Shown here: piece by piece, positions 38,522-52,620 of the stretch
Layout of the letters: the number at the start of each line of letters is the position of its first letter
How positions within the stretch are numbered: the stretch's first letter is position 1
Virus record (IMG/VR): IMGVR_UViG_3300027278_000003
Source: a virus
Lineage: Duplodnaviria > Caudoviricetes
DNA: 64,000 nucleotides
Direction: 5' to 3' (one strand)
Made by a program: the position numbers and the translations under genes
The notes under the pieces: generated by a model
What the model was told of the DNA's origin: nothing
The model's database searches: none
Seen by the model: only the letters and a program-made list of their open reading frames with translations

Positions 38522-41320
38522 TTGTCATACGTAGACGCATATTATAATAAAGACAAAGACATTGTTCAAGTGGTTGAACGTGTCAACGGAAAACGTGTTT
38601 ATCAAGATTATCCAGCATGGAGAAAATTCTACATTCGCGATGATCGAGGTGACCATCTAAGTATTCATGGAGAAAAAGTACGCGAGATTAAAGTAAAGCG
38701 CCTTAAAGATATGCACAAAGAATTGCGTATCAACTCTGGTAAGAAAATCTACGAAAGTGATATCAAGCCAGAAATTCGCTGTCTCGCTGAAAACTATCTG
38801 AATGTTGACTCGCCAAAACTAAACGTTGCATTTTTCGACATCGAGGTGGACTTTGACGCAGAACGCGGCTTTGCTCCACCCGAAGATCCATTTATGCCAA
38901 TCACTGCGATTACTACACATTTACAGTGGCTTGATCAACTTGTAACATTTGTTATCCCACCTAAACATATGCGTGAGGGTGAAGGGTTAGAAGAAGCACA
39001 GCGACTATGCGACAAGTTTGAGAATACATTTTTGTATCTCAGTGAAGCAGATATGTTGAATGACTTCCTAGCACTTATTGACGATGCAGACGTTTTATCT
39101 GGTTGGAACAGTGAAGGTTTTGATATTCCATACACTGTTCGGCGTATCACACGTGTGCTTTCTAAGTCACACACTCGTAAGCTATGTTTGTGGGATTTGA
39201 TTCCTAAAGAAAAGATGATGGTGAAATACGGTAAAGATCAAATCAGTTATAATCTGTTTGGTCGTATTCACCTCGACTATCTTGAACTTTATCGCAAGTA
39301 TACATATCACGAAATGCATTCTTATTCACTAGATGCGATTGGTGAATATGAACTTGGCGAACGTAAGATTGCATATGAAGGTACTCTAGACCAGTTGTAT
39401 AACCAAGACTTCTATAAGTTTGTAGAATACAACAGGCAGGACGTTGCACTACTTGACAACCTAGACAAGAAGCTACGTTTCATTGATCTAGCAAACGAGA
39501 TTGCGCACGATAACACAGTTAATATTCAAACGACTATGGGTGCTGTTGCTGTTACAGAGCAAGCAATCATCAACGAAGCACACCGTCGAGGTATGGTAGT
39601 TCCAGATCGCAAGCGCCGTGATTGGGCTACGGAAGATGATGATTACGAGCCCACACCAGAAGAAGAAGCAGAAGCAGAAGCACAAAAAGCAGCAGGCGCG
39701 TTTGTTGCTAACCCAAAAATTGGTATTCAAAAATGGGTATCTGGTATCGATATTAACTCACTGTATCCGGCAATCATTCGTGCGCTAAACATGTCACCCG
39801 AGACTATTACAGCACAGTTGCGACCAACATACACTGACCAACTGATCAGTGGTCGCATTGCGACAGGTCGCAGAGGCGGCACGAACAAAGGGTTTGGTGC
39901 TGCACAAGCATGGGAAGATACATTCACGACCGAAGAATTTCGTTTCATGAATGGGCAAGACAAGACAAATATGTTGCATCTTGACATGGAAGATGGCAGT
40001 ACGCACGAAATCACTGGCGCAGAAATGTACGACCTAGTATACAACTCAGGTCTACCATGGACGATTAGTGCGAACGGTACAGTATTCAAGCAGGACGTAC
40101 AAGGCATCATTCCGAGTTTGCTTGAGCGATGGTATGCAGAACGTAAGCAACTACAAGCGAAGAAGAAAGAAGCACAAGCTGGTGGGAATGCAGAAGAAAT
40201 TGCATTCTGGGATAAGCGTCAGCTAGTGAAGAAAATTAACTTGAACTCACTATACGGTGCTATTCTTAACCAAGGTTGTCGTTTCTACGATAAACGTATT
40301 GGTCAGTCAACTACACTGTCTGGGCGTTGTATTACTCGCCACATGGGATCAAAGACCAATGAAATCATTGCAGGTGACTATGACTACAAAGGTCCAGCAG
40401 TAATTTACGGTGACACTGACTCTATCTATTATTCTATGTATCCTGTATACAAAGATCAAATCGATAGTGGTGAAATCGCATGGGACAAAGAAATTGTTCT
40501 CAAGCTGTATGATGAAATTGCGAACCAAGTGAACGCAAGTTTCCCAGACTTCATGAAAGTATTCTTTAACTGTCCTCGCAAGCAAGGTGAGATTATTGCA
40601 GCAGGACGAGAAAACGCAGCAACGATGGCTATCTTTATTAAGAAGAAACGTTATGCAATGTTGATCTATGATGATGATGGTGTTCGCCGTGATGTAGACG
40701 GGAAACCCGGCAAAGTAAAAGCAATGGGTCTTGACTTGAAGCGTTCGGATACGCCAGACTACATGCAAGATTTCTTGATGCAAGTTCTTATCAAAGTACT
40801 AACTGTTGGTAACGAAAGTGACGTTATCGGAATGGTGAAAGAATTCAAGAAAGAATTCCGCAGTAGGCCGGGTTGGGAAAAGGGAACGCCAAAGCGTGTT
40901 AACAACTTGACTAAGTTTAGAAACATGGTCGATAAGTTTAAAAGTAAGCAGTCAGCAGACTTTAAACTTGGTAAAGTAGAAGAAGAAAACAAGAAAGTAA
41001 CTATGCCAGGTCACGTTACTGCGGCGTTGAATTGGAATACACTTCGACAGATGAACAGCGACCGTTATTCTCTTGAAATTGTTGATGGTATGAAAACTAT
41101 CGTATGTAAACTTCGTGACAACCCAATGAAGATTACAAGTATTGCGTATCCTATTGACGAAACTCGCATTCCAAAATGGTTCCAAGAACTTCCGTTTGAT
41201 CACGATCTAATGGAAACGACTATCATCGACAAGAAGATTGATAACCTTATTGGTGTTCTTAAATGGGATTTGAGTGACGCAAACACTAGCGAAACTTTTG
41301 ATAACTTGTTTGATTTCTAA
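38522..41320 (+). CDS. Family B DNA polymerase
   Basis: Exo FFDIE; DINSLYP, KINLNSLYG and YGDTDS motifs; GGAG RBS with TTG start; C-terminal FDNLFDF. Confidence 0.97.
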   Translation: MSYVDAYYNKDKDIVQVVERVNGKRVYQDYPAWRKFYIRDDRGDHLSIHGEKVREIKVKRLKDMHKELRINSGKKIYESDIKPEIRCLAENYLNVDSPKLNVAFFDIEVDFDAERGFAPPEDPFMPITAITTHLQWLDQLVTFVIPPKHMREGEGLEEAQRLCDKFENTFLYLSEADMLNDFLALIDDADVLSGWNSEGFDIPYTVRRITRVLSKSHTRKLCLWDLIPKEKMMVKYGKDQISYNLFGRIHLDYLELYRKYTYHEMHSYSLDAIGEYELGERKIAYEGTLDQLYNQDFYKFVEYNRQDVALLDNLDKKLRFIDLANEIAHDNTVNIQTTMGAVAVTEQAIINEAHRRGMVVPDRKRRDWATEDDDYEPTPEEEAEAEAQKAAGAFVANPKIGIQKWVSGIDINSLYPAIIRALNMSPETITAQLRPTYTDQLISGRIATGRRGGTNKGFGAAQAWEDTFTTEEFRFMNGQDKTNMLHLDMEDGSTHEITGAEMYDLVYNSGLPWTISANGTVFKQDVQGIIPSLLERWYAERKQLQAKKKEAQAGGNAEEIAFWDKRQLVKKINLNSLYGAILNQGCRFYDKRIGQSTTLSGRCITRHMGSKTNEIIAGDYDYKGPAVIYGDTDSIYYSMYPVYKDQIDSGEIAWDKEIVLKLYDEIANQVNASFPDFMKVFFNCPRKQGEIIAAGRENAATMAIFIKKKRYAMLIYDDDGVRRDVDGKPGKVKAMGLDLKRSDTPDYMQDFLMQVLIKVLTVGNESDVIGMVKEFKKEFRSRPGWEKGTPKRVNNLTKFRNMVDKFKSKQSADFKLGKVEEENKKVTMPGHVTAALNWNTLRQMNSDRYSLEIVDGMKTIVCKLRDNPMKITSIAYPIDETRIPKWFQELPFDHDLMETTIIDKKIDNLIGVLKWDLSDANTSETFDNLFDF

Positions 41321-41892
41321 TGGCTAAAAAAACATACACAGAACTAGTATCAAGTCTAGGACGAAACGCAGAGAGTGATGAATGTTACACTCCTGTAGAT
41401 CAGGTCCTACCATTGCTACCATACCTAAATAAAGATAAGACATACTATGAAGCAACTAGCGGAATTTCTTCAAACATTTTGGATGGATTTACTAAGTGGG
41501 GCTATAGCATTGTTGGGAGTAATGGTAGGGATTTCTTTACTTGTGAACATAATGATGTTTATGATGGGATCATAACGAACCCACCATACAGTCTCAAAGA
41601 TAAATTCTTTCGGCATTGCTACGACTTGGGTAAACCATTTGCGCTACTACTTCCAGTAGCAAGTTTTCAAGGTGGCGCAAGAGGAAAGATGTTTATGGAA
41701 TATGGTATGTCGGCACTAGTGTACAACAACCGTGTTGACTTTACTGGTAAGGGCAATCCTACATTCGGCAATGCTTGGTTTATGTGGGGCTTTGATACCA
41801 TGCCACCAAATACAATTCATTGGGTAGACAACCCAAAGATTGGTGAAAAGATTGATGTTGAAAAAGCATTTGACAACTTTTTCGACTTGTGA
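41320..41892 (+). CDS. Putative N6-adenine DNA methyltransferase
   Basis: DECYTP, IITNPPYS and PFALLLP motifs. Confidence 0.75.
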   Translation: MAKKTYTELVSSLGRNAESDECYTPVDQVLPLLPYLNKDKTYYEATSGISSNILDGFTKWGYSIVGSNGRDFFTCEHNDVYDGIITNPPYSLKDKFFRHCYDLGKPFALLLPVASFQGGARGKMFMEYGMSALVYNNRVDFTGKGNPTFGNAWFMWGFDTMPPNTIHWVDNPKIGEKIDVEKAFDNFFDL

Positions 41893-41925
41893 TATAGTAA
41901 TACTAATAATATATAGGAGAACGCA

Positions 41926-42681
41926 ATGCGTGACATTTTGAAAGATATTGTAAAACACACTCACTCGCTTGGTATCATCCAAGCAGTAAAAGTAACTACA
42001 GATGCAGAAAGCACAACTCTAGACGCGATGGACGATGATCGTACTGTTGTTCTTCGTGCAAAACTACATGAACGCGTAGCAGCGTTTGAAGGTAAATTCG
42101 GTCTAGGTCGTCTTGGTGTTCTAAGCGGTTATCTAGGTTATGAAAGCCGCAACAATGAAGGCGAAGTTGTAACTACACAAGTAGAAATCGGTCGCCAAGA
42201 ACGCAATGGCGAAGAAGTTCCTAGCGAATTTAACTTTACTATTCCTGGCATTCTAAGTTCAACTTATCGTGTTATCGTAAGTGAACTAGTTGATGCACAG
42301 ATCAAGACCGCAAACTTCAAAGGCGCAAAATGGGATGTTGAAATCATGCCATCACAGCAAGCAGTTAAAGACTTGCAGCAAACAGCAGCAATTCTAAGTT
42401 CATATGATCCACTGTTCACTGTGAAAACAGTAGATGGTGATCTACAGTTCACAATCGGTGACGCGTCAACTGATAAAGCAGACTTGACTTTCGCACGTAA
42501 TGTAAACGGTGAACTAAAGACTGGTTGGAGTTTTCCACTTTCAACAGTTCTTACAATTCTAAAGCTGGGTGATACTTCATCAATGAGCATTAAGATTTCA
42601 GATCAAGGTGCGATGATGATCCAAGTCGATAGTGGTCTTGGTCTATACGAATACATTCTACCAGCAAAATCAGGAAACTAA
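41926..42681 (+). CDS. DNA polymerase sliding clamp (gp45/PCNA-like)
   Basis: About 250 aa, two-domain alpha/beta pattern ending ISDQGAMMIQVDSGLGLYEYILPA; in the replication operon. Confidence 0.65.
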   Translation: MRDILKDIVKHTHSLGIIQAVKVTTDAESTTLDAMDDDRTVVLRAKLHERVAAFEGKFGLGRLGVLSGYLGYESRNNEGEVVTTQVEIGRQERNGEEVPSEFNFTIPGILSSTYRVIVSELVDAQIKTANFKGAKWDVEIMPSQQAVKDLQQTAAILSSYDPLFTVKTVDGDLQFTIGDASTDKADLTFARNVNGELKTGWSFPLSTVLTILKLGDTSSMSIKISDQGAMMIQVDSGLGLYEYILPAKSGN

Positions 42682-44244
42682 ATGAAAGACTTTGGCAAGA
42701 ACAATAAAGATAGCGGGTATGCAATCTTTCTTCCCGCAATCTCAAACTTTTATGTTCGCAAAATCTCACAGCATTATGCGGGCACAACTGACATGTTCCC
42801 GCCAGAGCGAATCCCACAAGGATTTGAACACGGTCTAGATGGTCTTAACATCTTTGACAAAGAGAAAGGCTATGTGTATTATTCACATGGCCTATACTCT
42901 GCGGGACATGCGAACCTAGACCTAGAAGGATCAAAAATTGATGATGGCATGGTTGTTAATCGTAATCGTGAACATACTATTCTTGTTGGCGATAGTGGCG
43001 GGTATCAAATCGGTTCAGGCGCTTGGAAACTTGATTGGACAAACTTTGAAGACGGTGCAGACTGGAAGAAAGTAAGACATGACATTCTAAAGTGGCTTGA
43101 AGAATATTGTGACTATTCAATGACACTTGATATTCCTCTTTGGGCATGGCTACCACAGTATCGTGGTCGCACAGGTCTTAAAGATCCAGAAGATTGTTTG
43201 AAAAAAACTATCTTCAATCATGAATATTTCATTAACAATCGCACACCCGGCAAGACTAAGTTCTTGAACACACTTCACGGCTCTAATTGGCAAACAAGTG
43301 AAATGTGGTATGAGGGTGTAAAACATTTCAATGATAAATCAGTGTATGGTGATCGTGCCTTCGAAGGCTATGCTATGGCAGGTGACCACGCTGGTGATGC
43401 AGAACTACTTTTACGCAGACTAATTCGTTTGCGTGATGATGGACTTCTTGGCCAAGCTGACCAAGATGATGTTTGGATTCACACTCTTGGTATTAGCGTT
43501 CTCCCATGGGGTGCTATGTTAACAGCGGTCCAGCGACAACTAAGAGAGCATGTAAATCCAAATATAACAATCTCTTTTGATGCAGCATCTCCTTATATTA
43601 CAGCATCGAAAGGATTGGCGTATGACTATCCCGACTTGAACGGCAATGCTTGGAGTTATAAAACCAAGCAACTGAAATGGCGTCAGGACCTGAGCCGGGA
43701 CCAACAGCCGTGGATGTATTCTGGTGAAATTGGTGATCGCCTAAACATGCGAGATATTAATTACATGCAACCGGGGATGCTAAATCGAAACGGTAAACCA
43801 GCAAAATCAAGTTGGGATAGTCTATCTTATATCCTTGTTCAAGCACACAACACTGAATATCATATCCGTGGAATGCAAGATGCAATACGCAGGTTCGATC
43901 ACGAATATGAAATGGTAAGAGATAAAATTGACATTACCAATATGAACTTGGATCCAAAGAAACCTTCTATTCTAAGTGAATCTGTACCAGATACAGTTCT
44001 TTACTTTGCTAAATTTGTTGAGGTTCTATTTGATCCTAAAACTAAAGACCCTATGCAGCTATTGACGGATTATCGCGCTTTTTTGCGCAAGTGCGAAGGT
44101 TCACGCGTCCAAGACACTAGTACAGTTCCAGAAGGTATGGAATTCGAAGAACCAGCTATTCGTACAGAAGAATTCATCGAAGCTATCAAGGGTAAGAAGA
44201 AAGAATATGCTGAACCAGAAGGTGTAGCAGATTTATTTGGCTGA
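42682..44244 (+). CDS. TGT-fold guanine transglycosylase, DpdA-like (7-deazaguanine insertion)
   Basis: GDSGGYQ, MTLDIP, KFLNTLHG, WIHTLG and SFDAASP motifs; clustered with folE, queE and a queD-like gene. Confidence 0.75.
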   Translation: MKDFGKNNKDSGYAIFLPAISNFYVRKISQHYAGTTDMFPPERIPQGFEHGLDGLNIFDKEKGYVYYSHGLYSAGHANLDLEGSKIDDGMVVNRNREHTILVGDSGGYQIGSGAWKLDWTNFEDGADWKKVRHDILKWLEEYCDYSMTLDIPLWAWLPQYRGRTGLKDPEDCLKKTIFNHEYFINNRTPGKTKFLNTLHGSNWQTSEMWYEGVKHFNDKSVYGDRAFEGYAMAGDHAGDAELLLRRLIRLRDDGLLGQADQDDVWIHTLGISVLPWGAMLTAVQRQLREHVNPNITISFDAASPYITASKGLAYDYPDLNGNAWSYKTKQLKWRQDLSRDQQPWMYSGEIGDRLNMRDINYMQPGMLNRNGKPAKSSWDSLSYILVQAHNTEYHIRGMQDAIRRFDHEYEMVRDKIDITNMNLDPKKPSILSESVPDTVLYFAKFVEVLFDPKTKDPMQLLTDYRAFLRKCEGSRVQDTSTVPEGMEFEEPAIRTEEFIEAIKGKKKEYAEPEGVADLFG

Positions 44245-44434
44245 GGAGGAAACTATGACCAAAGACAAAAAACTACAAAGACTAGAACAACTAAAAAAAG
44301 AACACCGTGATCTTGACAATCAGGTACAAAAAGAGTATAGTATACGTCTAGATGTAAGTGATTTAAAAGTTCAAAAACTCCGACTAAAACAAGAGATTCT
44401 AGCAATGGAAAAAGAGCTAGGATTGAATGAGTAA
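44237..44434 (+). CDS. Small coiled-coil protein (DUF465/YdcH-like)
   Basis: LEQLKKEHRDLD...LKVQKLRLKQEI. Confidence 0.55.
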   Translation: MAEEETMTKDKKLQRLEQLKKEHRDLDNQVQKEYSIRLDVSDLKVQKLRLKQEILAMEKELGLNE

Positions 44435-44876
44435 CTACTACGATTATATGCGCGATGAAGGACGCAAACAAGATATGACAATCGAAAAATCAATGAATGA
44501 AGCAAAGCGATGGATTTGGGTTACGTTCAAACGTGAAGGTATTCACTGCTATCCAGCAGCAAAAGATGATCCTAAACTAGCGACAGGTGATTGGGATGAC
44601 GTATCATTTCTTGGCGTCCCTCACCGTCATATTTTTCATTTTCGTGTGGCTGTTACTGTCACACACAATGACCGCGATATTGAGTTTATTCAATTCAAAC
44701 GCTGGCTTGAAAAGTTGTACAACGAAGACGTACTTGATCTAGATTATAAATCTTGCGAAATGATGTCCGATGATCTATACATGCAAATTGCAAACAGATA
44801 TCCAAATCGTGACGTAAAGATTGAAATCTCAGAAGATGGTGAAAACGGAGCGTTAATCGAATATGCCAGTAATTGA
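44427..44876 (+). CDS. QueD-like 6-carboxytetrahydropterin synthase (T-fold)
   Basis: EGIHC, HRHIFH, SCE and EISEDGENGA motifs. Confidence 0.75.
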   Translation: MSNYYDYMRDEGRKQDMTIEKSMNEAKRWIWVTFKREGIHCYPAAKDDPKLATGDWDDVSFLGVPHRHIFHFRVAVTVTHNDRDIEFIQFKRWLEKLYNEDVLDLDYKSCEMMSDDLYMQIANRYPNRDVKIEISEDGENGALIEYASN

Positions 44877-45417
44877 ACATCCAACTAAAGAAGAAATTCA
44901 AGCAATGGTGCGCGTAGTACCAGATCATCCTCGACAAGGAGTGATGTATCAAGATATGGCAAGTATCTTTAATCATCCGCAGGGACTACTAAAAGTAGTA
45001 ACACTGTTTAAAAATTATATCAATGCAAATGGTATTGAGTTTGATCGTATTGTAGGACTTGATGCGCGTGGATTTCCCATGGCAGGTGCTCTTAGTGCAA
45101 TCACCGGTAAGCCCTTCGCGATGGCGCGGAAACGTGGGAAACTTCCAGGTGAAACAGTATCAACTACATACGAACTAGAATACGGTAAAGATGAATTGCA
45201 TCTACAAATTGACGCAATGAATCCACGTGATCGTGTACTTGTCATTGACGATGTAATTGCAACTGGTGGCACTCTTGAAGCAGTTACTAAGTTAATCATG
45301 CAATTTGATGCAAACGTAGTTGGCGTACTTGCTATCATGGATCTAGAGTTCCTTGGTGGTGCGCAGAAATTGCGGGATCGCGGATACAACGTGTATTCTA
45401 TTTTGAAGGAAGAATAA
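44863..45417 (+). CDS. apt: Adenine/purine phosphoribosyltransferase
   Basis: GLDARGF, RKRGKLPG, YELEYG and the PRPP loop VIDDVIATGGT. Confidence 0.88.
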   Translation: MPVIEHPTKEEIQAMVRVVPDHPRQGVMYQDMASIFNHPQGLLKVVTLFKNYINANGIEFDRIVGLDARGFPMAGALSAITGKPFAMARKRGKLPGETVSTTYELEYGKDELHLQIDAMNPRDRVLVIDDVIATGGTLEAVTKLIMQFDANVVGVLAIMDLEFLGGAQKLRDRGYNVYSILKEE

Positions 45418-45951
45418 ATGATCACAAGTTTTGTGGTGACATTAATTGAATGCTTAGAAATCGCATTCATCACTTTGATGCTAACGCAGTATACAAAATC
45501 TGCAAACATCTATGCATCGGGTTTTGTGGGATTAATCGGTGGCGTACTCGCTGCATATTTCCTACACGATGTTCTTGAAGATTATGAATGGGCAATGTAT
45601 GCTATTCTTAGCGTATTGTTCTTTTATCTGTTTGTAAAAAGCAAGGACATCACTGCACATATCAAGGAACACTTAGAAGAAATTCGTAGTGCAAGTAGCA
45701 TTGTTATAGCGGTTGCTACTGTGTTCTTTGTGTATGCACGTGAGAGTTTTGAAATCTTTTCGGCACTCTTACTTAATCCAGCAAGCAATTGGTTGTTGGC
45801 TGGCGTAGCAGCAGTTCTTGCTGCATTAGTATTTGTATTTGCTAGAAATAGTGAATACAAGAGATATGTTTTCAAATTTGGTTATTTGGCATATCTCGCG
45901 TTTGGTATCTGGTTTGGATACGAAGCACTAGAACATCTACACATTCTCTGA
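45418..45951 (+). CDS. FTR1/EfeU-like iron permease (short form)
   Basis: About six TM helices; two degenerate RExxE motifs (IECLE, RESFE). Confidence 0.55.
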   Translation: MITSFVVTLIECLEIAFITLMLTQYTKSANIYASGFVGLIGGVLAAYFLHDVLEDYEWAMYAILSVLFFYLFVKSKDITAHIKEHLEEIRSASSIVIAVATVFFVYARESFEIFSALLLNPASNWLLAGVAAVLAALVFVFARNSEYKRYVFKFGYLAYLAFGIWFGYEALEHLHIL

Positions 45952-45964
45952 AAGGTTTAATAGA

Positions 45965-47029
45965 ATGTTATATCTTATAGACTTGGAAAGCGTTGAATCC
46001 CGCTATACCAAACAATGGAAGACGCATTTCCCCGCATTGTTGAAACAGAACGGAATTGACGTTACAGTTATCGAAGGTCCCACAGACATTCCCGCTGCAA
46101 CTACTCCCGGAGCGTTTCTCAACTTTGGCGGTACAAATATCTATAAGAGCGCACAGTTAGAACAAATAGCAAAACTGTTCTGTGAAGGTAAGATCAAAGA
46201 TGGTGACTACTTTCTCTATACCGATGCGTGGAATCCCACTGTTATCCAGTTGAAATATATGGCAGAATTGCTTGGGATAAAACTCCGAATTGGTGGACTC
46301 TGGCATGCTGGTAGCTATGATCCCCAAGATTTTCTAGGTCGCTTAATCGGTGATAAGCCATGGGTTCGTAACGCGGAAATGTCAATGTATGATTGTTATG
46401 ACGACAACTTCTTTGCAACAAAGTTCCATATCGACTTGTTTACAAATACGTTCTGGAACGATGACCGTGATATCGACAGGCAGCTACTTCACTCTATTAG
46501 ACAAGTAGGATGGCCTATGGAATATATTGAAACTGAACTTAGTGAGTATAAGAATATGGCGAAAGAGGACATTATTCTATTCCCTCACAGAATTGCTCCT
46601 GAGAAACAGCCCGAGATTTTTGACTACATTGCTGAACAAATGCCCGAATATAAGTTCATCAAATGTCAAGAACTTAATTTAACCAAACCAGAATACCATA
46701 CGTTACTTGGTAAAGCAAAATTGGTATTCAGTGCAAACTTACAGGAAACTCTTGGTATCTCAGTATACGAAGGTCTTGTTGTGGGTGCAATACCAATGGT
46801 ACCGGATCGTCTATCTTACAGTGAAATGTGGGATGAGACATTCAAATATCCAAGTGAATGGACTACAAACCTAGAAGCAGCAAAGAAGAACATTGCAAAC
46901 ATCAAAGCGTACATTCGTATGCAAATGAGCAAAAATTCTGATATGCAGTTTTTGATGAAACAGGAAGTAGAACGTGTGCAGAAATTCTATCACGCAACAA
47001 AACTTATTGACATTCTAAAAAACTATTGA
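45965..47029 (+). CDS. GT-B glycosyltransferase
   Basis: FPHRIAPEKQPE and QETLGIS.YEG...GAIPMVPDRLSY donor-binding motif. Confidence 0.8.
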   Translation: MLYLIDLESVESRYTKQWKTHFPALLKQNGIDVTVIEGPTDIPAATTPGAFLNFGGTNIYKSAQLEQIAKLFCEGKIKDGDYFLYTDAWNPTVIQLKYMAELLGIKLRIGGLWHAGSYDPQDFLGRLIGDKPWVRNAEMSMYDCYDDNFFATKFHIDLFTNTFWNDDRDIDRQLLHSIRQVGWPMEYIETELSEYKNMAKEDIILFPHRIAPEKQPEIFDYIAEQMPEYKFIKCQELNLTKPEYHTLLGKAKLVFSANLQETLGISVYEGLVVGAIPMVPDRLSYSEMWDETFKYPSEWTTNLEAAKKNIANIKAYIRMQMSKNSDMQFLMKQEVERVQKFYHATKLIDILKNY

Positions 47030-47099
47030 CTTCTAACATCCACTCATGCTATAATAAAACATGAGTGGGATTACCACATCTAACTAAGGAACATAGTAC

Positions 47100-47801
47100 A
47101 TGAGAAAGACTTCCGAAATTATTAAACACCGGATCGAAGAAGCTGGCGCACGATATTGGGCAGGCGATAATATTGCAAACTTCATTATGCCAGAAGAATA
47201 TGACATGATAATTGATGAACTAACCGAGGGATTCGAAGGTATTCTAGATTCTCTCGTAATTGATCGTCATACCGATCCAAATAGCATGGATACAGGTCGT
47301 AGACTTGCAAAGATGTATGTCAACGAACTTATGTCAGGACGATACAATCCTGCTCCAAATGCAACTGCATTTCCAAATGAACCTGACAATATCACAAACG
47401 AAAAATATGAAGGCATGCTAGTTGTTCGCAGTGAACTCACAAGTGTTTGTTCACACCATCACCAACCAGTTAAAGGTGTTGCATACATTGGTATCATTGC
47501 AGCAGACAAATTGATTGGTCTAAGCAAGTATACACGTATCGCACAATGGTGTGCAAGACGAGGTACACTGCAAGAAGAACTTGCAATGGACATTGCACGT
47601 GAAATCATGAAAGCAACTGGATCAAATGATGTAGGTGTTTACATTCAAGCGACACATGGTTGTTGTGAAAATCGTGGCATTATGGCACACAGTTCACTAA
47701 CACAGACAACAGTGCTAAAGGGTTCATTCTTCAATAACCCACATGTTAAACAAGAATTCTTTGACAACATTAAGCTACAGCAGGAGTTTGCACCGCGATG
47801 A
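47100..47801 (+). CDS. folE: GTP cyclohydrolase I
   Basis: DTGRRLAKMY, SVCSHHHQP, GLSKYTRI and HGCCENRG motifs. Confidence 0.95.
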   Translation: MRKTSEIIKHRIEEAGARYWAGDNIANFIMPEEYDMIIDELTEGFEGILDSLVIDRHTDPNSMDTGRRLAKMYVNELMSGRYNPAPNATAFPNEPDNITNEKYEGMLVVRSELTSVCSHHHQPVKGVAYIGIIAADKLIGLSKYTRIAQWCARRGTLQEELAMDIAREIMKATGSNDVGVYIQATHGCCENRGIMAHSSLTQTTVLKGSFFNNPHVKQEFFDNIKLQQEFAPR

Positions 47802-47917
47802 ACGACCATAAAGAAAACTACTGCACAGGCAAAGGACTTCCTCTAGCATTAACGATTATTATGCTAATGATGGTCGGCGGACCTGTTGCTATTTCAGCAA
47901 TGATGGGATATTTTTAA
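47798..47917 (+). CDS. 39-aa single-TM peptide missed by the ORF track
   Basis: ATGA overlap with the folE stop; GGAG RBS; hydrophobic helix. Confidence 0.5.
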   Translation: MNDHKENYCTGKGLPLALTIIMLMMVGGPVAISAMMGYF

Positions 47918-47918
47918 T

Positions 47919-48089
47919 ATGAAACATACAATCATTTTTAAACAGCCGCTTACATTGAAAATCAAAAGCGTTGTAGACTTTGATCTAGAATCAGATGGTA
48001 CACGCATTGTTGCAACAGTAGAAGCAACTACGCTAGAAGAAGCAAAACAAAAAGTGTTAAACACATTGGAAGGCATTGAATTAGAATGA
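47919..48089 (+). CDS. 56-aa protein missed by the ORF track
   Basis: Fills the gap; ATGA overlap with the queE start. Confidence 0.5.
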   Translation: MKHTIIFKQPLTLKIKSVVDFDLESDGTRIVATVEATTLEEAKQKVLNTLEGIELE

Positions 48090-48958
48090 AACTAAGATAT
48101 TCAGAAGCATTCTATTCGCTGCAAGGTGAAGGACAGTACGTTGGGGTTCCCAGCGTATTTCTTCGCACCTTCGGATGTAACTTTCGATGTCAGAACTTTG
48201 GGTTGCCACGCGGACGAGAAAAAACACACTACAACCCAGAGGTTGAAGAACTACTAAATACTGGCATCTTGGATCGTGTTACTAAGTTTGAAGAACTACC
48301 AATCATTCATACTGGCTGTGACACGTATGCAAGCATCTACCCAGAATTTAGACACCTTGTTATGGATAAGACGATTGATGAAGTTGTCGAACAACTACTC
48401 AGTCTAACACCTGAAGGTAAGTGGATCCAAGATAACGGACAAGATGTTCATCTAATTCTAACTGGCGGTGAACCTCTACTTGCTTGGCAGAAACTTTACA
48501 TCGAACTATTCGAACATCCGAAAATGAAGGACTTGAAAAATGTCACATTCGAAACAAACTCCACACAGTTTCTACATGAAAGTCTACGAACTTACATTGG
48601 AAACCAAAAGAGAATTAAATTCACATTTTCATGCTCGCCTAAACTCTCCGTTTCTGGAGAACGTTGGGAAGACGCTATTAGACCTGATGTCGTACACAAT
48701 TATATCACTACTTTGGGTACTAATCTGTATCTCAAATTTGTTGTCTCTGATCGTACAGACGTGGAGGAAGTTGATCGCGCTGTTGCAGAATATCGCAGTC
48801 ATGGCATCGATTGTCCGGTTTATCTTATGCCAATGGGCGGGCGCAGTGAAGGATATGATATCACAGTCCAAGAGGTCGCAAACATCTGTATGCAAAAAGG
48901 ATACAGATTTACACCAAGACTCCACATATCTCTATTCGGGAACGCCTGGGGGACTTGA
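48086..48958 (+). CDS. queE: 7-carboxy-7-deazaguanine synthase (radical SAM)
   Basis: EAFYSLQGEG, FLRTFGCNFRC...GCDT, LTGGEP, FETN and PRLH motifs. Confidence 0.92.
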   Translation: MKLRYSEAFYSLQGEGQYVGVPSVFLRTFGCNFRCQNFGLPRGREKTHYNPEVEELLNTGILDRVTKFEELPIIHTGCDTYASIYPEFRHLVMDKTIDEVVEQLLSLTPEGKWIQDNGQDVHLILTGGEPLLAWQKLYIELFEHPKMKDLKNVTFETNSTQFLHESLRTYIGNQKRIKFTFSCSPKLSVSGERWEDAIRPDVVHNYITTLGTNLYLKFVVSDRTDVEEVDRAVAEYRSHGIDCPVYLMPMGGRSEGYDITVQEVANICMQKGYRFTPRLHISLFGNAWGT

Positions 48959-49028
48959 TAAGAATAAACGATATCTCCGTGGTGTACACACAGAAGAACA
49001 ATATAACAATATAAGGAAGCAGTTATAA

Positions 49029-50108
49029 ATGAACAACTATATTTTTACTAGCGAAAGTGTTAGCGATGGACACCCTGATAAGGTTGCAGACCAAATCAGT
49101 GATGCCCTAGTTGATGCTGGGTTGAAGAATGGGGACGAGACTACTCGCGTTGCCATCGAAACACTTGTAACTACCAATCACGTAACGTTGGCGGGCGAAG
49201 TAAAAAACTTTAATGTATCGAAAGAAGAAGTTAAAGAAATCGTCCGAAATAAAGTTCGTGAGATTGGTTATGAACAAGAAGGATTTCATTGGGAAAATCT
49301 AAACATCTACAATGAAATTCACTCACAAAGCGCAGACATTGCACTTGGAACTGACGACTTCGGTGCAGGGGATCAGGGTATTATGTTTGGTTACGCCACC
49401 AATGAAACGCCAACACTAATGCCTGCGCCTATCTATTATTCACATGAAATTCTAAAAGAACTAAAAAATCATCGTGGTGCTATTTTAGGCCCGGATGCAA
49501 AGTCTCAAGTGTCGGTACAATACGAAGGCGGGCGTGTCAAGCGTATTGACCAGATTGTTGTGTCTACACAACACACTGAAGGTAATGTAGAAGCAGCGCG
49601 TGAACTTTCAAGACTTGCAGCGCAAAACGTACTCGGTGATTTGATTGATGATAAAACTATATGGCATCTTAATCCAACTGGTAATTTTGTCATTGGTGGT
49701 CCGGATGGTGACGCTGGTGTCACTGGACGTAAAATCATCGTTGATACATATGGTGGTATGGCACCTCACGGTGGCGGTGCGTTCTCTGGTAAAGACCCAA
49801 CCAAGGTTGATCGCAGTGCAGCGTACATGGCACGTTGGCTTGCAAAGAATGTGGTAGCGGATAACATGGCTGATTGGTGCAAAATCCAATTGAGTTATGC
49901 TATCGGTGTTAAGGAACCAACATCAATCTATGTTGAATCGAATGGTCACGACCGTAGTATTATGGAATTCATTGAACGTGAAATCGACTTGACACCACTT
50001 GGTATTATTCGTCGCTTTGATATGTATAACTTCCACGAATACAGTAAGAATTGTGTTTACGGGCACTTCGGTGATAAGGACGTTCCATGGGAACGCATTG
50101 GTTGGTAA
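49029..50108 (+). CDS. metK: S-adenosylmethionine synthetase
   Basis: FTSESV.DGHPDK, GAGDQG, GP.GDAG.TGRKIIVDTYGG and GKDPTKVDRSAAY motifs. Confidence 0.97.
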   Translation: MNNYIFTSESVSDGHPDKVADQISDALVDAGLKNGDETTRVAIETLVTTNHVTLAGEVKNFNVSKEEVKEIVRNKVREIGYEQEGFHWENLNIYNEIHSQSADIALGTDDFGAGDQGIMFGYATNETPTLMPAPIYYSHEILKELKNHRGAILGPDAKSQVSVQYEGGRVKRIDQIVVSTQHTEGNVEAARELSRLAAQNVLGDLIDDKTIWHLNPTGNFVIGGPDGDAGVTGRKIIVDTYGGMAPHGGGAFSGKDPTKVDRSAAYMARWLAKNVVADNMADWCKIQLSYAIGVKEPTSIYVESNGHDRSIMEFIEREIDLTPLGIIRRFDMYNFHEYSKNCVYGHFGDKDVPWERIGW

Positions 50109-50109
50109 C

Positions 50110-50625
50110 ATGCTAGGCTATTTTCTAAATCCTAAGAATTGGTTTCTGTCCGATAAAGAGAAACAAATTGCTAAATTGAACTACGCGCTTTCAGGTGAAG
50201 AACTTGAACGCGCACTAGTTCGTCTTGAAGATCCCGAAAGCCGGGACTTCAAGATTGGCATGTTGAACATTGATATAAAATATAACTATATCAATCAAGG
50301 TGCATACGACAAAGCAGTAGCGACATTGGATAACGAACCATACGTTAAAGTATTGAGCATTGACTTGGACCCAAAAACACCGGGTGCTGGCTACTTTGAA
50401 CTAGACTTCAACGAACAGTTTGTTGAGTATCTAGCAAACAGTGGGTATGAAGGTACTGAACCAGAACAGATCGTTGACAACTGGTTCAGCGACTTATGTA
50501 GAAACATCGTTCTTGCTGATCTACAAGACGAAAACGGTGAACCAAAAAGTTATATGGTAGACAGCAAAGAAGGTCAAATTATTCAACGCTTAAAAATGGA
50601 CGACGACCGTGCAGAATATTCTTGA
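50110..50625 (+). CDS. Conserved phage hypothetical protein
   Basis: ATG 50110 just after the metK stop; the track start lies inside metK. Confidence 0.55.
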   Translation: MLGYFLNPKNWFLSDKEKQIAKLNYALSGEELERALVRLEDPESRDFKIGMLNIDIKYNYINQGAYDKAVATLDNEPYVKVLSIDLDPKTPGAGYFELDFNEQFVEYLANSGYEGTEPEQIVDNWFSDLCRNIVLADLQDENGEPKSYMVDSKEGQIIQRLKMDDDRAEYS

Positions 50626-50677
50626 CATAGTATCGTATACATGTTAAAGTATTTTCAACACAACTAAAGAGGAAACT

Positions 50678-51679
50678 ATGGCTACATTTATTCTTGTTGA
50701 TAGCTTCAACATGTATCATCGCGCCAAACACGTGGCAATGCGCGGCACTGATATCGACACAAAGATTGGACTTGCATTTCACATTATGATGTCTAGCGTC
50801 AAAATGTGTTATCAAAAGTTCAATGCCGATCACGCGGTATTTTGTCTTGAAGGTCGTAGTTGGCGCAAAGACTATTACAAGCCATATAAGGCACAGCGCA
50901 AAGCCGCACAAGAAGCCAAGAGTATTCGTGAACAAGAAGAAGACAAGATTATGTTTGAAGCATATGATGATCTTATACAATTCTTGGACAAGAAAACTAA
51001 CGTCACCCTTCTACAGAATAAAAATGCAGAAGCGGACGACATGATTGCGCTATTCATTGCTTCACATCCAAACGATCAACATATTATTGTGTCAAGTGAC
51101 AGTGACTATCAACAGCTACTTGCTCCGAATGTTCGTATCTACGATGGTGTACAGAACCGTATCATCACACTTGAAGGTTTCTTTAAGGATGATAAAGACA
51201 TGACTCCAATCAAAGATAAGAAAACTAAAGAGAGACTTGCAGCACCCGATCCACAGTGGCTTCTATTTGAAAAATGTATTCGCGGTGATACTTCTGATAA
51301 CATCTTTTCTGCGTACCCTGGTGCACGTAAGAAGGGAAGTAAAAACAAAGTCGGCATGACAGAAGCATTTGAAGATCGCAAGACAGGCGGCTTCAACTGG
51401 AACAACTTTATGCTACAACGTTGGACTGATCACAATGGTGAAGAACATGTAGTACGGGAAGATTATGAGCGCAATCGAACTCTCATTGACCTAACTGTAC
51501 AACCAGAAGAACTCAAAGTGGCATTCATCGAAACTATTGCAGAAGCAAGCAAACCGAAACGCGTAAATGGCGTTGGTATCAACTTCTTAAAATGGTGCGG
51601 TGCATGGGATTTACAGAACCTAGCGAAAGCACCCGATGAAATGGCAGCTATTCTAAATAAGGCGTACCCACATGAATGA
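50678..51679 (+). CDS. 5'-3' exonuclease / T4 RNase H-like flap nuclease
   Basis: VDSFN, SWRK, EADD, SSDSDY and GDTSDNI motifs. Confidence 0.88.
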   Translation: MATFILVDSFNMYHRAKHVAMRGTDIDTKIGLAFHIMMSSVKMCYQKFNADHAVFCLEGRSWRKDYYKPYKAQRKAAQEAKSIREQEEDKIMFEAYDDLIQFLDKKTNVTLLQNKNAEADDMIALFIASHPNDQHIIVSSDSDYQQLLAPNVRIYDGVQNRIITLEGFFKDDKDMTPIKDKKTKERLAAPDPQWLLFEKCIRGDTSDNIFSAYPGARKKGSKNKVGMTEAFEDRKTGGFNWNNFMLQRWTDHNGEEHVVREDYERNRTLIDLTVQPEELKVAFIETIAEASKPKRVNGVGINFLKWCGAWDLQNLAKAPDEMAAILNKAYPHE

Positions 51680-51899
51680 CGAATATCAAAATCTAGCATC
51701 GCAAATTATTCAATTGCAAGTTGCAACCAATTCTATTTCAGAAACAGTTACAACTCTCGCAGAAGAAATCGTAGAATTAAGAAAAGAACTTGCTGCATTG
51801 AACCAAAGAATTGATTCAGTTCGCAGCACAGTGAGCATAGAAAATCAGGCAATACGGAATTCGCAGAGCCTCAATTTCAGATATAATGACCGTGCATAA
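51672..51899 (+). CDS. Coiled-coil hypothetical protein
   Basis: Heptad pattern; overlapping ORF chain. Confidence 0.45.
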   Translation: MNDEYQNLASQIIQLQVATNSISETVTTLAEEIVELRKELAALNQRIDSVRSTVSIENQAIRNSQSLNFRYNDRA

Positions 51900-52620
51900 A
51901 TTTATCTTTGATGTTGATGGTACCTTGACTCCTAGTAGAGGTACTATCAACGACGAATTCAAAGAATGGCTATTAAACTTTTCTAAAGAGCATGATGTGT
52001 ATCTTGCGACTGGCAGCGATGCACCAAAAACCATTGAACAAGTTGGCGAAGAACTTTTCAATTCTGTTGCAAGATCATATAATTGCAGCGGAAACAGTGT
52101 ATGGGAAAAGGGTGTAAACATATATAATAATGACTGGGAATTACCAGAGCGCCCTTGGAAGTATCTCGAAAGTGTATTGATGCGTTCACAGTTTCGACCA
52201 CGCACAGGTTGGCATTTCGATGTCAGACCGGGCTTAGTGAACTTTTCTATTGTTGGCAGGAAAGCAACACCAGAAGAACGTAAAAAATACGTTGAATGGG
52301 ATACGGCAAACAAAGAACGCTGGTTCATATCAAACGAATTTAATCTCAATTTCTCTAAACAACACAATGTAGAATCACAAGTTGCAGGAGAAACTGGTAT
52401 GGATATTATGCCCATAGGTAAAGGTAAGCAGCAAATCATCAAAGATTTTGATACAAACAATAACATATATTTCTTTGGTGACAAGACGCAACCGGGCGGA
52501 AATGATTATGACATTTCTCAAACAGTTCGCGCACTAGATAAGGGACATGTATATTCCGTCAAATCTTGGGAAGATACGTGGGAATATTTAAAAAACATAT
52601 GTATACAATTGAAATCATAA
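51886..52620 (+). CDS. HAD-family phosphomannomutase (eukaryote PMM2-like)
   Basis: FDVDGTLT, NFSIVGR and FFGDKT..GGND motifs. Confidence 0.82.
   Translation: MTVHKFIFDVDGTLTPSRGTINDEFKEWLLNFSKEHDVYLATGSDAPKTIEQVGEELFNSVARSYNCSGNSVWEKGVNIYNNDWELPERPWKYLESVLMRSQFRPRTGWHFDVRPGLVNFSIVGRKATPEERKKYVEWDTANKERWFISNEFNLNFSKQHNVESQVAGETGMDIMPIGKGKQQIIKDFDTNNNIYFFGDKTQPGGNDYDISQTVRALDKGHVYSVKSWEDTWEYLKNICIQLKS

Follow-up and report, generated by a model that had tools for sequence, protein, structure and literature searches.

Putative clamp-binding peptides on a methyltransferase and a DpdA-like transglycosylase encoded beside the polymerase and clamp genes of an uncultured marine phage

The window analyzed here is a 64,000-nucleotide stretch (IMG/VR record IMGVR_UViG_3300027278_000003; Duplodnaviria, Caudoviricetes) that forms part of the 342-kb, 92%-complete genome of an uncultured marine phage. 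Four of its genes, packed tightly on the plus strand, encode a family B DNA polymerase (PolB), a small DNA methyltransferase-like protein (MTase), a sliding clamp with the fold of PCNA, and a DpdA-like protein with the fold of tRNA-guanine transglycosylase (TGT). The polymerase and both putative modifying enzymes end in similar short peptides, which are candidate docking sites for the clamp. Megablast found no match to the region among cultured phages. The features are as follows (positions in the window; aa, amino acids).

38522..41320, plus strand: family B (T4-type) DNA polymerase, 932 aa; Pfam DNA_pol_B (1.9e-31) and DNA_pol_B_exo1 (3.1e-20), phrog_262 (E 7.8e-191 over residues 4-927)
41294..41317, plus strand: polymerase C-terminal peptide TFDNLFDF, a putative clamp-binding tail; the protein ends SETFDNLFDF
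41320..41892, plus strand: small NPPY-motif DNA methyltransferase-like protein, 190 aa; phrog_799 (E 3.3e-31), ITNPPY
41866..41889, plus strand: MTase C-terminal peptide AFDNFFDL, in an extension of ~16 residues past the core end ..WVDNPK; the protein ends EKAFDNFFDL
41926..42681, plus strand: PCNA-fold sliding clamp, 251 aa; AlphaFold2 (AF2) model and Foldseek
42682..44244, plus strand: TGT-fold DpdA-like transglycosylase, 520 aa; AF2, Foldseek and VIA-align
44134..44151, plus strand: internal GMEFEE segment of the DpdA-like protein, aligning with the motif N-x-F-x-x-L-F-E-V-E-E of a more distant clade (alignment columns 496-512)
44221..44241, plus strand: DpdA-like C-terminal peptide GVADLFG; the protein ends EGVADLFG

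The start of the MTase gene overlaps the polymerase stop codon (TAATG, 41318-41322), and the DpdA-like gene starts immediately after the clamp stop codon (42679-42684), an arrangement that suggests translational coupling across the module. PolB lies ~0.6 kb upstream of the clamp gene, with the MTase gene as the only gene between them. The original prediction, made from the nucleotide sequence, held that the polymerase, MTase and TGT/DpdA-like protein end in SETFDNLFDF, EKAFDNFFDL and EGVADLFG, respectively, and that their genes flank a putative clamp gene at 41926; the open reading frame (ORF) listing bears out the three termini, and the ORF coordinates bear out their placement. In all three proteins, a flexible linker leads to a peptide with the pattern h-x-x-[L/F]-F-[D/G]-x. 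On comparative grounds, we consider it fairly probable that these tails are clamp-binding peptides like those of T4 gp43, gp55 and gp33 and that they tether two DNA-modifying enzymes to the clamp; DNA modification in this phage would then probably be hooked physically to the replication machinery.

The identity of the clamp comes from its predicted structure. The AF2 model (predicted local distance difference test [pLDDT], 92.4; predicted template modeling score [pTM], 0.87) fits the processivity fold, which is defined by two topologically similar beta-alpha-beta-beta-beta domains per subunit: the top 50 Foldseek matches in the PDB are all PCNA (E about 1e-11; template modeling score [TM], 0.63-0.74). 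No Pfam or NCBIfam family matched the protein, its only family match being phrog_12062 (function unknown), and its profile hidden Markov model (HMM) found nothing meaningful among PDB sequences. Some homologues in PA5oct-like, Phosso and Rak2-like jumbo phages bear the annotation sliding clamp or PCNA. Besides the polymerase, the same genome encodes a clamp loader (phrog_168, E 2.8e-80; G000:C1:105931-106854) ~9 kb beyond the window. The clamp lacks a Pfam gp45 match, and a genome search for a second clamp of the gp45 type (PF09116) was silent, as it also was on control genomes. The original prediction hinged on the 41926 protein being a clamp, and the PCNA fold agrees with that identity. The PA5oct homologue of this clamp, EST35_0314 (L001:6918-7664; 42% identity), is annotated as a "structural protein" from electrospray ionization tandem mass spectrometry (ESI-MS/MS), which implies that the PA5oct clamp was detected in virion preparations.

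The DpdA-like protein likewise had no match in Pfam, PHROGs or NCBIfam, and its family profile HMM found nothing meaningful among PDB sequences. Its AF2 model has a confident core followed by a disordered tail (residues 478-520, pLDDT <50). The best Foldseek matches are all TGT (E 2.5e-6, probability 1.00), and VIA-align superposed ~300 residues on bacterial, human and archaeal TGT with Z scores of 17-18 and root mean square deviations of 4.6-5.1. Catalytic-type aspartates are conserved: GDSGGYQ (D104), LD.P (D150; LDIP here) and SFD..SP (D300; SFDAASP here) are invariant in 26 diverse orthologues. An hhalign comparison with E. coli TGT lined up the QGS, GYA.GG, LG and FD...P motifs at a low overall probability (4.5%, E 0.009), and in this low-probability alignment D300 of the SFD motif falls on the aspartate of MFDCV in the E. 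coli enzyme. The nearest viral models are unnamed jumbo-phage proteins, the Motura TGT, R9TGF0 of Vibrio phage nt-1 and, weakly, DpdA3 of phiST (M4SLA5, E 6e-3). Apart from this weak fold match, PHROG and tblastn comparisons with DpdA3 gave no matches to phiST (CGPG_00065) or CP220.

A total of 79 related viral loci were fetched with the DpdA-like profile. The order polymerase-(MTase)-clamp-DpdA-QueD-like-glycosyltransferase-FolE is retained in nearly all that are of sufficient length to reveal it, and also in PA5oct. The loci fall into a close clade (~80% identity), which has the MTase gene, and a distant clade, here called clade B (~45%), which does not. Among 11 distinct close orthologues, the polymerase has a conserved end, [ST]E[TQ]F..LF[DES]F, while polymerases of clade B phages end N-T-F-x-x-L-F-x-F-E. 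In the DpdA-like protein, F519 is invariant and L518 is present in at least 90% of 16 close orthologues, with varying linker residues around them; the ends found among orthologues include IAELFG, VDALFG, VSDLFS, VEDLFA and SNMFDF. Across the family, F..LF occurs within the last 60 residues of 90 of the 120 DpdA-like orthologues. The peptide stands at the very C terminus in the window's clade, whereas the clade B motif, N-x-F-x-x-L-F-[EDS]-[VE], is internal and lies ~30 residues before the end; it is internal in PA5oct too. The GMEFEE segment of the window's protein, whose residues F488 and E489 do not vary within the close clade, may be a remnant of this older internal position, judging from the alignment. 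Clade B DpdA proteins (P0011-P0125; e.g., L032:9962-11500) carry a second conserved acidic segment, D-D-D-E-L-R-A-L-E-E, at the very end, after F..LF, and the window's clade has T-E-E-F-V-E-A-V-K-G-K-K-K-E-Y at the corresponding place; the acidic segment may be a second docking site.

The form of the DpdA peptide follows that of the cognate polymerase in five lineages:

Clade B: polymerase NTFNKLFDFE; DpdA NTFGSLFEVEE
PA5oct: polymerase HFDSLFGW; DpdA SFNSLFDV
Vibrio phage 2.275.O (cultured): polymerase NNTDLFDW; DpdA NNNDLFGW
Phosso: polymerase TTFNDLFTF; DpdA IVEGLF
The window's clade: polymerase TFDNLFDF; DpdA VADLFG

The MTase is assigned by ITNPPY (motif IV) in its translation and by homology to the phrog_799 DNA methyltransferases, as expected of N6-adenine or N4-cytosine enzymes. 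Its phage homologues are annotated as DNA N6-adenine methyltransferases and its Atlas cluster as "class I SAM-dependent methyltransferase" (score 0.97). Neither Pfam nor NCBIfam matched it, and phmmer against the PDB gave chance matches only. The tail of this protein appears to be an add-on, present in about half of the close lineages: a polymerase-type end occurs in 7 of 12 distinct close-clade lineages and not in the other 5. Of 120 MTase homologues, 58 have nothing beyond the core end ..WVDNPK, 41 are extended but without a recognizable motif, 6 end F-D-x-L-F-D-[LM] on linkers that differ in length and sequence, and 15 have ends of the D-L-x-x-F-F type. Where the tail is present, its last 8 residues are conserved and the linker before them is variable. 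The MTase tail is nearly identical to the polymerase tail but the codons differ at synonymous sites, so it is not a recent DNA copy.

A second group of MTase tails lies outside this clade. On an unrelated T4-like contig, a homologous MTase ends SDLSAFFS and the PolB of the same contig ends TTLEDFFG; gp43 of P-SSM2 ends NLDSFFS. MTase homologues on T4-like (cyanophage-like) contigs (L113 and L157, IMGVR_UViG_3300024264_001315; L106-L116) end DLSAFFS, NLSEFFS or DLTEFME, resembling the T4-like cyanophage polymerase ends LEDFFG and NLDSFFS. From these sequences, the MTase family appears to have acquired the local polymerase tail twice, in separate lineages, with a single contig showing the second case. 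Regarding the original expectation that the tails would be conserved among orthologues, the DpdA LF pair is kept in the close clade, and in five lineages the DpdA motif takes the form of the polymerase tail of its own phage; the MTase tail falls short of the expectation.

We compared the tails with background across the ~380 genes of the genome and across the related loci. A pattern built from polymerase tails only, F..[LF]F[DSETG][FWVLM] in the last 45 residues, matches the polymerase and MTase only (0.39 in shuffles), and the post hoc pattern [DN][LF]F[GD][FL]?$ retrieves exactly the three proteins (0.03 expected). A position-specific scoring matrix (PSSM) built from clade B polymerases only reached at least 12 bits in 20 of 56 DpdA ORFs versus 10 of 1026 other ORFs. 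Similarly, the tail motif was found in 25 of the 40 best 50%-identity family representatives versus 27 of 257 control proteins. Polymerase and DpdA peptides co-vary across clades (p = 1.5e-4, permutation). Other matches of the genome-wide scan, a ClpX-like protein and unknowns of 395, 295, 187 and 231 aa, fall into no informative family and may be chance matches. Elsewhere in the genome, beyond the window, L082 (G000:C1:228150-229037, minus strand) is a protein of 294 aa and unknown family that ends ..QKNALFSF. This end partly matches the polymerase-type tail, and the protein may be another client.

Downstream of the DpdA-like gene is a set of genes of the kind expected for 7-deazaguanine synthesis:

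44427-44876, plus strand: QueD-like protein, so labeled from motifs and position (homologue of the PA5oct-clade gene at the same place); no Pfam match, only phrog_17812 (function unknown)
44863-45417, plus strand: adenine phosphoribosyltransferase (APRT)-like phosphoribosyltransferase, from family searches
45965-47029, plus strand: GT1-like glycosyltransferase, from family searches
47100-47801, plus strand: GTP cyclohydrolase I FolE, from family searches
48086-48958, plus strand: radical-SAM QueE-like protein, from family searches

MetK and a FEN/RNase H homologue lie further downstream, and a phosphomannomutase also accompanies the set (window 44427-52620). No QueC turned up in the genome, which is 92% complete. 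A derivative of 7-carboxy-7-deazaguanine (CDG), possibly glycosylated, may be the base that is inserted, and the phosphoribosyltransferase could salvage guanine released by the exchange. The GT1-like glycosyltransferase adjoining the DpdA-like gene is kept in all relatives. In one clade B relative, a 182-aa protein with no Pfam family is encoded between the DpdA-like and QueD-like genes (L027:12236-12784, plus strand); it carries NEFNSLFDVEE near its C terminus, with the same core as the DpdA motif of its own phage (NEFNSLFIV) and a resemblance to the polymerase tail NTFGKLFDFE, and may be a further clamp client.

Taken together, the comparative support for docking on the clamp is strong. The peptides are hydrophobic and acidic, stand at or near the C terminus on disordered, divergent linkers as in T4, and share the form of their own polymerase in five DpdA and two MTase lineages. 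We propose that the peptide would serve as the docking site for the PCNA-like clamp of the phage on the polymerase, MTase and DpdA-like protein alike. Clamps loaded during replication would then carry or recruit both modifying enzymes along newly made duplex DNA, and adenine methylation and the exchange of guanine for 7-deazaguanine would be coupled to replication. On this reading, the peptide would bind the clamp, and modification would thereby gain in efficiency and take place close to the fork. The claim of the original prediction that both enzymes dock on the clamp is thus partly supported, by the clamp fold and by the conserved or recurring tails, and is weaker for the MTase, whose tail is not universal. 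A predicted complex of the clamp with DpdA residues 461-520 scored 0.38, 0.08 and 0.14, with a median below the mark, and was used neither way.

Several observations weigh against this reading. The identities of the clamp and the DpdA-like protein both rest on predicted folds, because the HMMs of both match no PDB sequence. Of the 12 close lineages, 5 lack the MTase tail, as do most homologues, among them those of the cultured cyanophages P-SSM2 and P-TIM68, which have no polymerase-like tail; tethering is therefore dispensable for the MTase. The loose pattern h..[LFM]F is not enriched genome-wide (14 versus 14.8 expected), and the window's own DpdA tail, VADLFG, is short, so that this tail by itself is weak evidence and its weight comes from conservation among orthologues. 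Within clade B, the polymerase and DpdA peptides co-vary weakly (p about 0.02), and within the close clade they show no co-variation; therefore, the match is mainly at the level of lineages and is confounded by shared ancestry. Finally, the FEN/RNase H homologue, a classical clamp client, has no such tail.

Each of the other explanations we considered is less well supported than docking on the clamp. The tails could share a docking partner elsewhere in the replisome (the single-strand-binding protein, helicase or clamp loader, for example), in which case the enzymes would still be replisome associated, with a hub other than the clamp. Even for T4, the existence of more than one gp45 site is debated (PMC2988020), and the second acidic segment of clade B (DDDELRALEE) could bind something else. 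We nevertheless consider this unlikely, given that the equivalent polymerase C terminus of T4 and RB69 binds the clamp (PMC2988020), that the three genes flank the clamp gene, with clamp-DpdA adjacency kept over deep divergence, and that many clade B DpdA motifs read Q-N-T-F-G-S-L-F, near a PCNA-interacting peptide (PIP) box. Still less likely, in our view, is that the tails have no function, with the hydrophobic DpdA end of the window's clade due to chance and the MTase tail copied from the adjacent polymerase gene as a neutral addition. The lack of genome-wide enrichment of the loose motif, the frequent absence of the MTase tail and the missing co-variation within the close clade would all fit such an origin. 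However, F519 is invariant and L518 nearly so inside a variable disordered linker, the DpdA motif recurs in 90 of 120 orthologues with lineage-specific forms in five lineages, and the MTase tail differs from the polymerase tail in synonymous codons and recurs on different linkers.

Two further possibilities have only a very slim chance of being correct. The peptides might be turnover or regulatory tags, for example, for a phage ClpX-like unfoldase or a host protease, that set when replication-phase enzymes are removed; degrons often take the form of short hydrophobic C termini, and a ClpX-like AAA+ protein is encoded in the genome. Since the motif of clade B and PA5oct lies inside the protein, ~30 residues short of the C terminus, it fits linear docking rather than a C-terminal degron, and the polymerase shares the peptide, which polymerases of this family use for the clamp (PMC2988020). 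An equally slim chance is given to the TGT-fold enzyme acting on tRNA, with a tail unrelated to its substrate. Every solved structural match is a tRNA-guanine transglycosylase, but in all relatives the gene sits in a replication operon beside the clamp and 7-deazaguanine synthesis genes, and the viral structural neighbors include DpdA-type proteins, e.g., those of Vibrio phage nt-1 and phiST (DpdA3). PA5oct has already been read by Iyer et al. as a system for deazaguanine synthesis and incorporation (PMC7824862), and all phages known to carry deazaguanine DNA encode a transglycosylase of the DpdA type (PMC10516641). The original prediction that the TGT homologue acts on DNA is therefore consistent with its location in a replication and deazaguanine operon, and activity on DNA is suggested by this context.

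A broader proposal, on which we are evenly balanced, is that the PCNA-like clamp of these phages is a tool-belt for hypermodification. The base-exchange enzyme and the MTase would ride on clamps left behind on new DNA, making modification processive and near-complete, and the arrangement would be widespread in abundant marine and soil jumbo phages, having arisen repeatedly by the appending of a phage's own polymerase tail. A clamp tether, if true, would give a concrete mechanism, processive and coupled to replication, by which phage DpdA achieves high or complete replacement of guanine on double-stranded DNA. In the searchable literature, we found no paper linking DpdA or deazaguanine modification to a sliding clamp. 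With two relatives in culture, Pseudomonas phage PA5oct and Vibrio phage 2.275.O, the idea is directly testable, and a polymerase-like tail may serve in annotation as a mark of candidate replisome clients.

Three known systems bear comparison with this module. The phage DpdA1-4 proteins described by Hutinet et al. (2019, 2023) also combine a TGT-derived fold with neighboring FolE/QueD/QueE-type genes and are predicted to insert 7-deazaguanine into DNA, a modification that was termed "post-replicative" (PMC10516641). The window protein differs in being only distantly similar in fold to phiST DpdA3 and in having a long disordered tail within its 520 aa.

In T4, the C termini of gp43, gp55 and gp33, which closely resemble one another and are hydrophobic and acidic, bind gp45, with divergent linkers and interchangeable motifs, and the 11 C-terminal residues of the RB69 polymerase have been co-crystallized with the clamp (PMC2988020). 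A sequence check agrees with the T4 gp43 end ...SLDFLFG cited in the original prediction, the protein ending ASLDFLFG. As in T4 and RB69, a short peptide on a variable flexible linker is common to the polymerase and to nonpolymerase proteins of one phage (T4 gp43 ASLDFLFG, DpdA-like GVADLFG). The extra clients here are DNA-modifying enzymes, whereas those of T4 are transcription factors; the clamp is PCNA-like by fold without a Pfam gp45 match, and the motif is internal in related clades. Docking on the clamp, if true, would add DNA-modifying enzymes to a phage tool-belt that comprises polymerase and transcription factors.

Eukaryotic PIP-box clients offer a functional analogy. The methyltransferase DNMT1 and UNG2, which removes bases, reach PCNA through a short linear motif, so that newly made DNA is processed. 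The canonical PIP box, Q-x-x-[LIM]-x-x-[FY]-[FY], was not found in the corresponding ends of the polymerase (S-E-T-F-D-N-L-F), the MTase (E-K-A-F-D-N-F-F) or the DpdA-like protein (V-A-D-L-F-G): none of the three has the Q, and the aromatic pair is missing from the DpdA tail. The system is also viral, and its base would be exchanged, not only excised. Many clade B DpdA motifs, reading Q-N-T-F-G-S-L-F, come close to Q-x-x-h-x-x-a-a, and recruitment of these enzymes by the clamp, if true, would be a viral parallel to the coupling of DNMT1 and UNG2 to PCNA.

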